From assembly GCF_036971445.1 (NCBI RefSeq), contig NC_091475.1, forward strand, positions 26,722,001-26,786,000: a DNA stretch of 64,000 bases, given 5' to 3'. Source of the stretch: Narcine bancroftii. Lineage: Eukaryota. Positions 37,301 to 56,725 of the stretch are shown in pieces. A program made the translations under genes and the position numbers. Under the pieces are notes generated by a model. It made no database searches. It was not told where the DNA came from and saw only the letters and a program-made list of their open reading frames with translations. The first letter of the stretch is position 1, and each line of letters begins with the position of its first letter.

Positions 37301-37388
37301 ACCAAGCAGCTTAAAACACTGGAAAAATACCATGTCCAAATACATTTGAAGGAAAAACAAACCAATATTCTGAGCCTAACATCCCCAG

Positions 37389-37580
37389 TGTAGGCTATTA
37401 GCATCAAACCAAATGAGGCAGAGTCCAGGTAAAACACTAGTTTTAATAGACTGGTATACAGCTAGGCTTTGAGGCCTTGGTCTTGCCTCTGTACAAGCCT
37501 AGGCCAGAATGAGGGGGAAGGGATCCCCCGGGCTTATATTCTCATCTGGTGACCTAGTGGTGTAATGACATACCACCACA
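37389..37580 (-). repeat. 3' LTR (192 bp)
   Basis: TGTAGGCT...CACCACA, homologous to 41843-42049. TATA-like AATATAAG, Inr-like TCATTCT and ATTAAA on the minus strand. Confidence 0.93.
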
Positions 37581-37899
37581 TTCACCCCCCCTTAAAAACT
37601 TGCGACTGACCCTCCCCCCACCCCTGTCTCTTTGCACCCGTTCATAAGTCCTGTATTTGACGTGGTTTCCTCTTCCTTCTGGACCTATGGAGGGCTGGGG
37701 CGGGGGAGGTGGGGGGCGCCAGGGCCTGGGGGGGTCTTGGCCCTGGGAGAGGGTATGGTGCATGGGTGCAGGGCTTTCCGCTCATTGGGGTGTGTTCATC
37801 TGCCACTCTTCATGCTGCTTCATGGGGGTCCGCGACCCTCCCGCGTCGACCGTGGTTCCTTCCTGCTGATCCCCCGGAGCCCGTGGTGCTCCTGCATCA

Positions 37900-40440
37900 T
37901 CTGCCATCCCGTTCTGTCGATCTGTAGGGGTCTATAGTTCTTCTGTGCCACCCATGTCTCCTGCTGGTGCAAGGTCCCTGGTGGCCACCAAGTCTTCCTG
38001 TCCATCCTCGAATGCAACGTAGGCATAATGAAGGTTCGTGTGCCTCACTTCCACGGGCTCCACCAGCGGGTCCATCCTGTGGCATCTGCAATGCTTGCGG
38101 AGGAGGTCCGGTCCCGGTGACATCAGCTATCTAGGCAGCACGGTGCCTGTCGCGGTTTTCCTTGAGAAAGATACGATCATGTGGTGTCACGTTAGTGGCG
38201 GTACACAATAAAGAGCGTATGGAGTGCAGAGCCTCTGGTAACATGTCTTGCCACCTTGCTACTGGTAGGTCCTTTGCTTTGAAAATTAGCAGAACCGTCT
38301 TCCAGATGGTGGCGTTCTCCCTTTCTATCTGCCCATTTCCCCCTAGGGTTATAACTCGTAATGCGACTGGTCGCAATGCCTCTATCCCTGAGGTACTGTT
38401 GGACCTCGGTGTTCATGAAGGCAGCACTCCTATCTGTGTGTATATAGGAAGGGTACCCGCATAAACTGAGTATAGATTGCAGGCACTTTATTACTGTGGC
38501 TGCGGTGACATCGGGACACGGGATAGCAAAGGGGAACCATGAGTATTCGTCGATAGCATTTAGGAAATAGATGTTCCTGTCATAGGATGGGAGCGGGCCT
38601 TTGAATTCAAGGCTAAGCCGCTCGAAAGGCCTGGTAGCTTTTATTAAGGGGACGCTGTCTTGCTGGTGGAACTGCGGTTTACACTCCGCACAGATGGAGC
38701 AATCCCTGCTTACCATCCATACCTCCTCCACTGAGAACAGGAGGTTTTGGGCCCTGACAAAGTGGAAGAGCCTCGTGACTCCCGGGTGGCCCAAGCTGTT
38801 GTACAAGCTCTGCAGCTGGGACATGTGATTAAGGGCTGAACAAGTGCCCCTGGACAATGTGTCTGAGGGCTCATTGAGCCTCCCTGGACAGTATAGGATG
38901 TTGTAGCTGTACGTCGACAATTCTATCCTCCAGTGCAAGATTTTATCATTCTTTTTCTTCCCCCTGTTCTGGTTATCGAACATGAACGATAAAGGTGAAG
39001 TGTTTACAGGCCAGAAAATGTCTCCAGTGCCGCACTGCTTCCACAATGGCCTGGGCTTCCTTCTCCACTGCTGAGTGTCTTACCTCAGACCCCTGGAGGG
39101 TCCGCGAGAAAAAGGCCACTGGCTTTGATTCAGGGTGGCAGCCAACGCCACACCTGAGTCGTCGGTCTCTACCTGAAAAGGGACCGTCTCGTCAATGGAT
39201 CGCAGGGTTGCCTTTGCGATCAGATCCCTGATCTCTTTGAAGGCTTTGATAGCAGCAAGGCTGAGGGGAAAAGTTGAGGCCTTTATGAGTGGGTGGGCCC
39301 TGTTGGCGTAATTGGGGACCCACTGTGCATAGAATGCAAACAGCCCCAGACAGCTCTTTAATGTCTTTTGAGAATGAGGGATGGGGAGGTCTAGCAGTGG
39401 GTGCATGCAGGCCGGGTCCGGGCTGATTTCCCCGTTTTGCACCACATAGCCCAGGATTGCTAACTTCCTGGTGCTAAAGACACATTTATCCTTATTGTAC
39501 GTTAGATTGCGGCCCTTTGTTGCCTGAAAAAAATGTTGAAGGTTAGCATCATGGTCAGCTTGTGAGTGGCTGCAGAACGTTGTCCAGGTACGGGAACACC
39601 GCCTTTAAGTGGTTCTCATCCACTATGTGGTCCATCTCCCGCTGGAACAGGGATACCCCATTGGCGATACCAAAGGGGAGGCAGAAGAACTGGTACAAAC
39701 GCCGTGTATATCCTATCACTTTCTAATGGGCAACTGGTGGTACGCTGCCTTGAGGTCGAGAGTAGAGAACACTTTGTACTGGGCAATGCTGTTTACCATG
39801 TCTGCGATATGCGGAAGCGGGTATGCATCCTGCTGCATGAATTTGTTGATGGTCTGACTGTAGTCTAGCCTCTTTTCCCCGGACTTCACTAGCACTACTT
39901 GTGCCCTCCAGGGTCTGGAACTCTTTTCTATAATGTTCTTCTCCAGGAGTCTACGGACTTCTGCACCGATAAACTCCATGTCTTTGGGCTGTACCTCCTT
40001 GGTGGCCACCGGGGTGCAGTCAGACGTGAGGTGCATGAATAAGGGGGGGGAGGACTCTATGTTCAGGGCTGTGAGGTTGCAGTAATGCTTCCTTCTAAGA
40101 ATTAATGGGGGAAGCAGCCCATCGTGCTCCATTGTGATGCTTTTCAGTTGGCACTGAAAATCCAACTCCAGCAGCACTGGAGCACAGAGGTGTGGGAGCA
40201 CCAGCAATTTAAACTCCTCATATGCCATACCCTGGATCTCCAGAGTGACCTTGCAGAAGTGGTTGCCCTTAGTCATGTAGTTGTTAGATACCATTAGGAC
40301 TGATGGTCACTGGGGTACGTTTTTAACCCTTGGTCTATAAAGCTCTCTGTACTCCCACTATCCACTAAACAATTTATAGTAGTCCTGTTAACCTTAATAC
40401 TAACGGTCGTGTCTAATAGGTTGTGCGGAGTCGCCTGATT
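37900..40440 (-). pseudogene. Gypsy pol (PR-RT-RNaseH-IN), multiple frameshifts
   Basis: PR CLVDSGSTESFI; RT DYSQTINKF..DAYPLP, FSTLDLKAAYHQLP, PYLDN; RH PFQVETDDSGVALAATL; IN GHPG..C..C, IHTD, GNGQIEREN. Confidence 0.92.
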
Positions 40441-40626
40441 TAGTCGTAATGAGGCCAACCTGGCGCCTCCTCCATTCTGATAGGAGCTTTCATCCCAACC
40501 TTGATCATAGTACTCGGTACCGAAGATGTTATCTAGTCGCTGTGTCCTCTGCCTGGGGTTCCAAGATGGCCGACAGCACATGGCACTCTGCTTTGACTTG
40601 GGGAAGGAGAAGATCTTTCCCGCCTC

Positions 40627-41392
40627 TCATTTGCATGAGGGCTTTGGTGGGAGCCTTGAGGCCTCTGCATACTTTTGCATATGCCCCTTCTTTACACACC
40701 TCGAGCAGTCCTTCTCCTCAGCTGGACAGTGGGCTCTGGGGTGCTTTAGCTGCCTGCAAAAAACACACTTGGAACTGTCTAATGAGGCAGTTGCTGCAGA
40801 ATATTGCCCTTGTTCACCCGTGCACCTCTCCCTGTGAGAGGCCCACGAGTCCGACTCAGTGTACCCCTCTAGCTCCCTCCTAGAGTCCTCCAGAGCCTCC
40901 ACAATAGTTTCAGCCTCATCTAGCCTCACTGTCCCCTTTTCCAACAGCCTCTGTCTCATCTCCGTTGACCTGACCCTGGCTACGATTCTGTCCCTCATCA
41001 GGTCGTCTGCGTACTCTTGCGCAGATACGGTCTTAAAATTGCAAGCCCTCGCCAAATCCTTTAGTGCGTGTATAAAGTCTCTAACAGACTCCCCTGCTTG
41101 CTGCAACCTGGTCATGAGTCTGTGCCTGGAGTGCAGTTCACTGTGCCCCGTATTATAATGTCTTTGCAAAGTGTCCATTGCTTCCCAGTATGACTTGGCG
41201 TCTTGAATTAACGAGTATGGACGATCTGCCAGCAGTAGCATCAGCATTTCCTCCTGACGCTCCCTCTACCCCCGCATAATTTAAAAAACACCTATACCAC
41301 CAGCCGAAATGCATGCTCGCACCGGGGGTTCTCAGATCCAGCTCAAGCTTCTCTGGCCACAGTACCTGGCTGAGCCTCTGCTTGTGGTTCAA
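40627..41392 (-). pseudogene. Gypsy gag (frameshifted)
   Basis: PEKLELD..F.WW..CF..Y N-terminal motif, RHRLMTRLQQAGESVRDF..L..LAR.C.F, MRQRLLE, twin Zn knuckles CVFC...HP..HCPA...CSRC.KKGH. Confidence 0.85.
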
Positions 41393-41842
41393 TAGCTGTG
41401 GGGTAGGCGCGTGCTGGGCCTGATCCCTCTCTCATGTGGTCGCTCGCCCCTGCAGAGACGCGGGCCCCTTCCGGGGAATTGGAGACTGTTGGGGGTGGCT
41501 CTGGGGTAACAGCCCGTCCCTCGATCCTGCCAGTAAACCGTGATCGGCAAGGTGACTTACCGTATGCCCTTCACCTGTGTCTGGCATTACTCCTGGTTGT
41601 ACACCAGGTACCCCGCGTGCTGTCCCGGTGAGTTCATGAACAGGTAGGGCACTCTGCTGCTCGTTACCTGTCCTGGGGTGTTTATGACCCCTCCGAAATC
41701 CACCATGACTGTGGGATGGGATCCCCCCTTCCTCTCGATCCCGATCTTGCAGCTTTCTGGCTGGTCCGTTTTTGACTGGACGTGCACAGGGTCAAGGTCT
41801 AGCGGGGCATCCATTCTGGAGATGTATAGCAGTCCATTAAAT

Positions 41843-42049
41843 TGTAGGCTACTAGCATAAAACCACAAGAGGCAGAGTGCAGGTAAAACACTAGTTTAAT
41901 AGACTGGTATACAGCTAGGCTTTGAGGCCTTGGTCTTGTCTCTGTACAAGCCTAGGCCAGAATGAGGGGGGGGCTTATATACAAGGTGACCAAGTGAGCC
42001 ACCTGGTGACCTAATGGTGTAATGACATTATGCATGACATACCACCACA
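41843..42049 (-). repeat. 5' LTR (207 bp)
   Basis: Homologous to the 3' LTR with several substitutions and indels. Confidence 0.93.
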
Positions 42050-42559
42050 CCCAGTATTGAGGCAAGGAGTTATACCTGGTCATCTAGGTTGAGACAAGAT
42101 TTTGAGGATATGAGTTAAGGGTGAAAGGGGAAGTGTTTAACTAGAACATTAGGGCCAATCTCTTCACACAGAGAGTGAAACGAGCTACCAGCTTAAATGT
42201 CAAAATTGATCCCGCATTCACCACTGAAAAATTTTTGATTGGTTCATGGATGGGAGGGAAATGGGGGGGGGGGGGGGGGCTATGATCTGGGTGCAGATCA
42301 TTGGGACTAGGTAGATTAATATTCAAAACAGATCGGATGGGCTGAAAGGCCTGCTGCAATGTTCCATCGTTCTATCTGCAGCCTTACACATGGTGATTCA
42401 TGGCAATCAAACAGTGGTTAGCAACTAAAATAGAATGTTGATGTGATAGGTCAGACCCTTAAATAGTCTTCAGAATGACATCATGTCTCACTGAAGAACT
42501 GATTCTCTTTTACCTTGAGAATTTATGCTGTTCTATGGTTTTATGGGCTGTTCACATAT

Positions 42560-45374: not shown

Positions 45375-45863
45375 CAAGATGGCAGAGGTCGACAACATCG
45401 AATCCATGCTGCTGAAGATCCAGCTGCGCTGGGTGGGTCACGTCTCCAGAATGGAGGACCATCACCTTCCCAAGATCGTGTTATATGGCGAGCTCTCCAC
45501 TGGCCACCGTGACAGAGGTGCACCAAAGAAGAGGTACAAGGACTGCCTAAAGAAATCTCTTGGTGCCTGCCACATTGACCACCGCCAGTGGGCTGATAAC
45601 GCCTCAAACCGTGCATCTTGGCGCCTCACAGTTCGGCGGGCAGCAACCTCCTTTGAAGAAGACCGCAGAGCCCACCTCACTGACAAAAGGCAAAGGAGGA
45701 AAAACCCAACACCCAACCCCAACCAACCAATTTTCCCTTGCAACCGCTGCAACCGTGTCTGCCTGTCCCGCATTGGACTTGTCAGCCACAAACGAGCCTG
45801 CAGCTGACGTGGACTTTTACCCCCTCCATAAATCTTCGTCCGTGAAGCCAAGCCAAAGAAGAA
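45375..45863 (+). mobile_element. 5'-truncated RTE LINE
   Basis: ORF 45379-45807 is near-identical to the C-terminus of the 3208 ORF. (GAA)n tail. TSD GATAACT at 45368-45374 and 45864-45870. Confidence 0.95.
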
Positions 45864-51224: not shown

Positions 51225-51690
51225 CGAATCCACGCTGCTGAAGATCCAACTGCGCTGGGTAGGTCACGTCTCCAGAATGGAGGACCATCGCCTTCCCAAG
51301 ATCGTGTTATATGGCGAGCTCTCCTTTGGCCACCATGACAGAGGTGCACCAAAGAAGAGGTACAAGGACTGCCTAAAGAAATCTCTTGGTGCCTGCCACA
51401 TTGACCATCAGCAGTGGGCTGATATCGCCTCAAACCGTGCGTCTTGGCACCTCACAGTTCGGCGGGCAGCAACCTCCTTTGAAGAAGACCGCAGAGCCCA
51501 CCTCACTGACAAAAGACAAAGGAGGAAAAACCCAACACCCAACCCCAACCAACCAATTTTCCCCTGCAACCGCTGCAACCATGTCTGCCTGTCCCGCATC
51601 GGACTTGTCAGCCACAAACGAACCTGCAGCTGACATGGACATTTTACCCCCTCCATAAATCTTTGTCCGCGAAGCCAAGCCAAAGAAGAA
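51225..51690 (+). mobile_element. 5'-truncated RTE LINE nested in L1
   Basis: ORF 51220-51633 near-identical to the other RTE copies; GCCAAGCCAAAGAAGAA tail. Confidence 0.95.
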
Positions 51691-56359: not shown

Positions 56360-56725
56360 CTCTCTTCTTTCTTTGGCTTGGCTTCGCGGACGAAGATTTA
56401 TGGAGGGGGTAAAAAGTCCACGTCAGCTGCAGGCTCGTTTGTGGCTGACAAGTCCGATGCGGGACAGGCAGACACGGTTGCAGCGGTTGCAAGGAAAAAT
56501 TGGTTGGTTGGGGCTGGGTGTTGGGTTTAAGGTATTTCTTCTCTTTGGCTTGGCTTCGCGGACGAAGATTTATGGAGGGGTAAATGTGCACGTCAGCTGC
56601 AGGCTCGTTTGTGGCTGACGAGTCCGATGCGGGACAGGCAGACACGGTTGCAGCGGCTGCAGGGGAAAATTGGTTGGTTGGGGTTGGGTGTTGGGTTTTT
56701 CCTCCTTTGCCTTTTGTCAGTGAGG
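56360..56725 (-). mobile_element. Two tandem RTE 3' ends
   Basis: About 56360-56528 and 56537-56725 both match the RTE 3' terminus, each with its own tail. Confidence 0.9.

Follow-up and report, generated by a model that had tools for sequence, protein, structure and literature searches.

A degenerate Gypsy element in the genome of Narcine bancroftii belongs to a clade of retrotransposons whose leaders pair with their own LTRs at the position of the primer-binding site, and sequence comparisons make it very probable that reverse transcription in this clade is self-primed in some form. A Tf1-like form with a long primer, extending from the transcription start site to the end of the paired LTR arm, is probably the one in use. 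The evidence also leans, less firmly, towards a broader account. According to this account, a widespread animal Gypsy clade apart from the Tf1/sushi group would use a primer of 50-70 nt of its own RNA that begins at the cap and ends at the poly(A) hexamer. The end of the primer would be set by one helix, which would also hide the 5′ poly(A) signal and leave barely sufficient R for strand transfer; a second helix would join the gag start codon to the capped end, and hundreds of integrated mis-copies would map both ends of the primer without experiment. The element was found in a stretch of 64,000 nt (contig NC_091475.1, positions 26,722,001 to 26,786,000), here called the window, in which all of its features lie on the minus strand.

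The window element and its leader-LTR stem

The window element is a 4.66-kb LTR retrotransposon, present as a dead copy whose coding frames are interrupted by stops and frameshifts. Its 5′ LTR (41843..42049), identified from the sequence and the LTR pair, is 207 nt long, runs from TG to CA and carries a private deletion between the TATA box and the initiator. The 3′ LTR (37389..37580, 192 nt) was delimited from the LTR pair, and the two LTRs are the same at 122 of 129 nt over their 3′ part. The sequence also shows a 5-bp target-site duplication (upstream copy 42050..42054, downstream copy 37384-37388) and a polypurine tract (37581..37593). The gag remnant (40627..41265) was recognized as a reading frame with a weak PF03732 match, under the curated cut-off. 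The pol remnants (38192..40626) were recognized from frame motifs in the order protease-RT-RNase H-integrase, with PF00665 above its cut-off and PF17919 under it. The TG...CA LTRs, target duplication, polypurine tract and PR-RT-RH-IN order are those of Ty3/Gypsy elements, and the closest PDB match of a sister-family protein (P0016) was Ty3 Gag-Pol (E 6e-63). No chromodomain family appeared in a Pfam search of the window's frames. Other direct-repeat pairs are present in the window at 45399-45822 and 51225-51648 (5.8-kb spacing), with further direct repeats at 2793-3340, 4366-4734 and 56407-56725, among which a 1.6-kb spacing is also present. In one family copy (L039, ~4300-5360) an 84-nt unit is repeated in tandem about a dozen times in the 5′ internal region.

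An earlier reading of the window, made from the sequence alone, had noted that the canonical TGG-initiated tRNA primer-binding site is absent, and the family bears this out. The 30 best family matches were fetched (620 candidates, 40 scored), the leader was scorable in 26, and 25 of these 26 are without TGG. The sole TGG near the LTR end of the window copy arises from a private G, the same one that creates the G-U pair described below. Comparison of the primer-binding position with host tRNA 3′ ends, covering 34 genes of 10 amino-acid types, gave a best 3′-anchored match of 5 nt in the window copy and of only 1 nt in two other family copies. The longest complement anywhere in these 34 genes, a set incomplete in its amino-acid types, was 7 nt.

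What occupies the primer-binding position (41823..41841), 2 nt after the LTR end, is a sequence complementary to an arm in R (41895..41913); both were located by folding and duplex scores, and the arm also by breakpoints. The stem geometry was confirmed exactly as it had been described: on the minus strand 41913-41895 pairs with 41841-41823 through 17 Watson-Crick pairs, one G-U pair and one C-C mismatch, around a 53-nt loop. The final six letters of the LTR arm, at its loop-side end, are indeed ATTAAA (41895..41900), a putative poly(A) signal. The stem is present in both the minimum-energy and the centroid fold of the 250-nt LTR-leader, which folds with a z of -3.87 (equally stable shuffles, 0/200), and the leader scores 15 in a duplex with its own LTR, the maximum with shuffled LTRs being 9 (0/200). 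The further claim that the stem can form in cis only at the 5′ LTR stands for the short-range stem, which is 5′-specific, but the 3′ R also has the arm and could pair with the leader over a long range.

Within the family, the G-U pair is private to the window copy, A-U being found at that pair in 25 of the 26 leaders. The C-C mismatch is family-wide (25 of 26 copies), and the family stem consists of 12 + 6 pairs. The stretch from the initiator to the arm (41913-41957, minus strand) forms a hairpin with alternative pairings. A search of the LTR against Rfam for a ribozyme or known RNA family gave just two chance-level matches.

Pairing across the clade

A search with the RNase H-integrase region of the element gave 748 homologues (E <= 1e-30); the 120 best are 51-65% identical. 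Named hosts among these 120 include rays, sharks, crustaceans, a sea anemone, a tapeworm and a nematode, and Pfam lists give a chromodomain for none of them. The Mag-like lineage proposed in the sequence-only reading is a conjecture. The automatic label 'K02A2.6-like', which amounts to no placement, is attached to three of the 15 members listed for one cluster of homologues. No relatives were found in a viral contig collection. Animal-type Gypsy elements, some with both LTRs, also occur in contigs filed as bacterial genomes (L165-L176); these contigs look like host contamination of bacterial assemblies.

Eighteen elements with an LTR-leader junction, representing ~14 LTR types, were scored from metagenome and genome collections and the Narcine bancroftii genome. 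The LTR end was taken from an LTR pair in nine and was inferred in the other nine by a pattern that already favours the expected leader start. Near-duplicates (L078, L080, L081, L090, L104, L122 and L125) were left out, as were two loci with damaged LTRs and unscorable pairing (L124 and L137), one with an ambiguous LTR end and only a short local hairpin (L166), and all loci without an LTR-leader junction.

For all 18 in-clade leaders the best duplex score was obtained with the element's own LTR, with one tie with a near relative. Shuffled LTRs matched that score in 0/200 cases for 16 elements and in 1 and 2 of 200 for the remaining two. The pairing is 11-19 bp long, begins at +2 in 16 of 18 elements and encloses a loop of 23 to 77 nt. 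A primer site would require such a register, fixed to the LTR end, whereas a simple hairpin would not. Three outgroup elements (32-35% identical) have a TGG site instead, and their duplex scores were at chance in all three. A tree of integrases, built without named references, separates 19 self-pairing rows from the three tRNA-site rows by a branch supported at 100/100. In nine of the 18 elements (L079, L082, L084, L091, L136, L153, L158, L165 and L176), GCC directly follows the arm end. GCC also follows AATAAA in one outgroup LTR, and may be a general poly(A)-signal context, not a cut-site motif.

A sister family in the same genome (G000, L157-L164) is young: it has single open frames of ~1,400-1,540 aa, the two LTRs are identical in seven of the eight copies fetched, and its integrase is ~61% identical to that of the window family. 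A related subfamily gave 6,159 LTR-motif matches, and 28 of 30 sampled matches were without a leader. Arm and leader show mirrored changes among 53 sister-family junctions. At pair 9, 29 junctions have T-A and 19 have C-G; at pair 11, 24 have A-T, 23 T-A and 2 G-C; at pair 13, 42 have T-A and 9 C-G. The pairing fades past pair 14-15, and the pattern used in the search largely dictated pairs 1-8. These mirrored counts perhaps reflect three or four events. Another mirrored change, from T-A to G-C, was found between L082 and L084. The covariation that the sequence-only reading had suggested looking for is therefore seen in the sister family, but none was found inside the window element's own family, in which the variants are private decay.

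Inverted mis-copies and the ends of the proposed primer

The predicted transcription start of the window element, which would also be the 5′ end of the primer, is at 41963 within an initiator-like motif (41959..41965), placed there by the sequence and by the ends of inverted pieces. A TATA-like box is predicted at 41974..41981. Its spacing of 16 nt from the initiator was shortened in the window copy by the deletion mentioned above; in 20 of 30 window-family copies the TATA box lies 27-31 nt before the initiator-like motif, and nine copies were unscorable. In the sister family the same initiator motif lies 52-54 nt before the arm end and is preceded, at ~30 nt, by a TATA-like motif. The arm had been placed about 55 nt downstream of the start; it begins 50 nt after the initiator A, so the figure is corrected while the position well downstream is upheld, because the TATA-initiator spacing is ~30 nt in two families with different LTRs and because the inverted pieces described below stop at the initiator. 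Motifs and breakpoints together put the arm 38-50 nt inside the predicted RNA in both families. Eight nt at 41812..41819, which include the likely gag start codon, are complementary to 41964-41957, the predicted RNA 5′ end. This end could thus pair with the gag start region over 8 bp in the window element and over 6 bp, one of them G-U, in the sister family. A poly(A)-like loose end ~20 nt past the hexamer occurs in two public-run contigs of uncertain type and is too weak to use.

Inverted LTR sequence from upstream of the arm follows the primer site in five units of the 53 sister-family junctions. A genome-wide pattern search then gave 440 inverted junctions in the sister family, with a control of 0, and three in the window family. 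At these junctions the LTR gives way at its end to the complement of the arm, followed by that of upstream R. The first 100 listed of the 440 were read in detail. Eighty-six are seamless, the LTR end plus one A being followed directly by the complement of the arm and upstream R; the other 14 are not, and some of these have up to ~30 nt of leader-type sequence ahead of the inversion. The LTR start is found at both ends in 19 of the 100, with an exact 5-bp target duplication in 13 of the 19, and longer rearranged elements with both ends in view have the 5-bp duplication in 4 of 4 cases (L370 is 5′-truncated, with no target duplication readable). Since target duplications flank the inverted copies, these most likely arose in the course of reverse transcription and were inserted whole. 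That the inversions are an assembly artefact was rejected on the grounds of the target duplications, the joints to internal sequence and the presence of the same junction type as a loose end in two contigs of a public run.

On the left side, 66 of the 100 loci hold a partial sense LTR, which in 37 of them adjoins internal sequence (one joint being common to two loci). The U5 piece so joined begins between -12 and +10 of the arm end in 29 of 37 cases; none of the 37 begins within 8 nt of the start site. Breakpoints at the arm end are where the first DNA product would stop were the RNA cut there. They are spread over ~20 nt, with 10 falling 4-11 nt inside the arm, and this spread exceeds what a single clean cut predicts.

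On the right side, 68 of the 100 inverted pieces reach the first base of the LTR. This lies beyond any RNA primer, so a further template switch would be needed; DNA fold-back fits these pieces equally well. Among the 32 pieces that stop short of the LTR start, 11 join internal sequence at 10 distinct joints. Five of these 10 end no more than 4 nt from the initiator, and nine lie no further upstream than -4, which is where an RNA template beginning at the initiator would end. The joints in L281/L312, L355 and L358 carry 6-9 nt of homology that could fix the breakpoint by itself. The breakpoint windows were picked after seeing the data, so that binomial values of 7e-23 and 1e-4 overstate the case.

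The fossil evidence comes mostly from the sister family, the window family contributing three loci only. At the mismatch position all three have the letter of the LTR and not that of the leader. The inverted piece ends 1 nt from the initiator in L297 and stops 48 nt up, joining pol, in L298; L299, a full element, rejoins the leader at the 8-nt match described above and has an ambiguous end point. A search with the window-family junction motif gave 137 matches, a figure that does not measure copy number; among 60 fetched, 45 were another repeat, 15 were ordinary leaders and none was a further inversion.

An unlikely reading of the same joints is that the primer is short, as in Tf1. The replicative RNA would then start at, or be trimmed to, the 5′ end of the arm, and the inversions would come from plus-strand fold-back on the arm or from a switch onto uncut RNA. 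This agrees with the 68 pieces that reach the LTR start, which require a DNA or 3′-end template, and with the leader-type sequence ahead of the inversion in some of the junctions that are not seamless. L091 has a TATA-like motif ~30 nt before its arm start, and the available text of PMC5341516 reports that Tf2 uses alternative start sites. However, neither of the two families in the Narcine bancroftii genome has a TATA-like motif 30 nt before the arm; in both, the TATA-initiator pair lies 40-50 nt further upstream, and in 9 of the 10 internal joints the inverted piece ends at the initiator or short of it.

Priming by another copy of the arm, supplied by solo-LTR transcripts or by the 3′ R of the same RNA and trimmed to the duplex while the template remains uncut, is more improbable still. 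The arm is present in the 3′ R and in every LTR transcript, short LTR RNAs could be abundant with 28 of 30 sampled sister-family LTRs lacking a leader, and a short transcript would likewise end at the initiator. An uncut template, however, predicts strong-stop ends at the start site, and the 37 U5 pieces described above have 29 of their ends near the arm end and none at the start.

There is very little to recommend a stem that mainly hides the 5′ poly(A) signal, as in HIV-1, with some host RNA as primer. The hexamer does lie in the arm in 11 of the 18 elements, only at the 5′ end is a short-range stem possible, and the hiding of AAUAAA by a hairpin is established in HIV-1, as the available part of PMC2645353 has it. 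Because 7 of the 18 arms have neither AATAAA nor ATTAAA, and two of these elements (L083 and L086) have a canonical hexamer in the loop, poly(A) suppression, judged from these motifs, cannot be the common purpose of the stem. Masking also needs no register fixed at +2, and in the mis-copies it is the element's own R that adjoins the LTR end. That the stem masks the signal in addition to its part in priming is a tentative suggestion. That a tRNA half or some unusual small RNA of the host acts as primer, the LTR complementarity being incidental, is scarcely credible: half-tRNA priming is known in Copia lineages according to the available text of PMC6317226, and the host tRNAs compared represent 10 amino-acid types only, but the 7-nt maximum complement is short and the primer-site letters vary by family, tracking each family's own LTR.

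Proposed mechanism and relation to known systems

In the long-primer form of self-priming, which is preferred here, the RNA would begin at the initiator and its arm would fold onto the primer-binding position. By analogy with Tf1, the RNA would be cut near the 3′ end of the arm (near 41895 in the window element), probably by the element's own RT/RNase H. The piece from the start to the arm, ~67 nt in the window element and 52-54 nt in the sister family, would be the primer, with the arm as its 3′ part. The first DNA product would be only ~50 nt long, and the first strand transfer would rely on the ~20 nt between the hexamer and the poly(A) site. Now and then plus-strand synthesis would continue through the still-attached primer and so give rise to the inverted copies, and the same copy-back would carry changes in the arm into the primer site. 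Hiding of the 5′ hexamer may be a by-product in some families. The tRNA-independent priming put forward in the sequence-only reading is thus well supported by own-LTR pairing, mirrored change, inverted junctions and breakpoints; nothing supports the idea that the stem acts as a switch.

The Tf1 primer is the 5′ segment of the mRNA, 11 nt long. Tf1 and Tf2 of Schizosaccharomyces pombe, Tj1 of S. japonicus and the Tf1/sushi chromoviruses resemble the window clade, as far as the available parts of the sources describe them, in having no tRNA site and a primer site that pairs with the element's own R. The Tf1 group likewise shares the Gypsy domain order and the 5-bp target duplication. As the earlier reading had maintained, the window family, and with it the sister family, would differ from Tf1 in that the pairing partner is internal, the arm of 13-19 nt lying 38-50 nt inside the predicted RNA and not at its extreme 5′ end. 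Also unlike Tf1, the arm ends at the position of the poly(A) hexamer, and the primer would be 52-67 nt long. The chromodomain at the integrase C-terminus that marks the Tf1/sushi group is found neither in the Pfam lists of the 120 homologues nor in the window's frames. In the Tf1 group the primer is cut from the RNA and the cDNA keeps a copy of it, according to the available text of PMC4600332, PMC5341516 and PMC11042837. In the window clade such a cut would fit, indirectly, the clustering of breakpoints at the arm end. About half of Tf1 cDNA retains a DNA copy of the primer or primer site (PMC11042837, available part).

For Tf1, self-priming has been demonstrated; for elements in hosts ranging from fungi to vertebrates it has been inferred (PMC4600332 and PMC5341516, in their available text). 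It was also predicted, from at least 10 nt of complementarity between post-LTR and LTR sequence, for plant Tcn1 (Gypsy) and TAR/Houba/Osr-1 (Copia), which show the same type of complementarity in other lineages and hosts, with no primer ends mapped there (PMC6317226, available text). The HIV-1 polyA hairpin, as described in the available part of PMC2645353, similarly places the hexamer in a paired region at the 5′ end. Both ends of the HIV RNA carry that hairpin, which is confined to R, whereas in the window element the arm pairs with a partner beyond the LTR, at the primer position, and the stem contains no hexamer in 7 of 18 window-clade relatives.

No description of self-priming in a non-chromoviral animal Gypsy clade was found in the available text of the literature searched, with subscription journals and Repbase Reports outside its scope (PMC3601003, PMC6934838, PMC5006619, PMC2774666 and PMC6238403). 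Within the same scope, again apart from subscription journals and Repbase Reports, no description of read-through copies of self-primers was found. Some sea urchin Gypsy families (Rho and related) were reportedly called self-primed in Repbase Reports of about 2005, and these groups may be the clade of the window element. Self-pairing at the level of the clade may therefore already be on record, and the new part is the fossil mapping of a long primer from integrated mis-copies.

Experiment has established self-priming in fission-yeast Tf1, and elsewhere it has been inferred from complementarity alone; the mis-copies provide a second, independent kind of evidence. They point to a different primer design, with a long primer, an internal arm and a cut at the hexamer. 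A long primer would imply an RNA cut far from the cap and a reverse transcriptase able to make or use such a cut, and self-priming would imply independence from host tRNA and from tRNA-fragment silencing. The young, high-copy sister family in the same genome makes these predictions directly measurable, and the reading of primer ends from mis-copies could be extended to any suspected self-primer.

Some inverted copies are near-palindromic insertions of ~430 bp that have a U3-type end on either side and are flanked by 5-bp target duplications (L278, L279, L283, L208, L210/L211 and others). If transcribed, these insertions would yield long double-stranded RNA.
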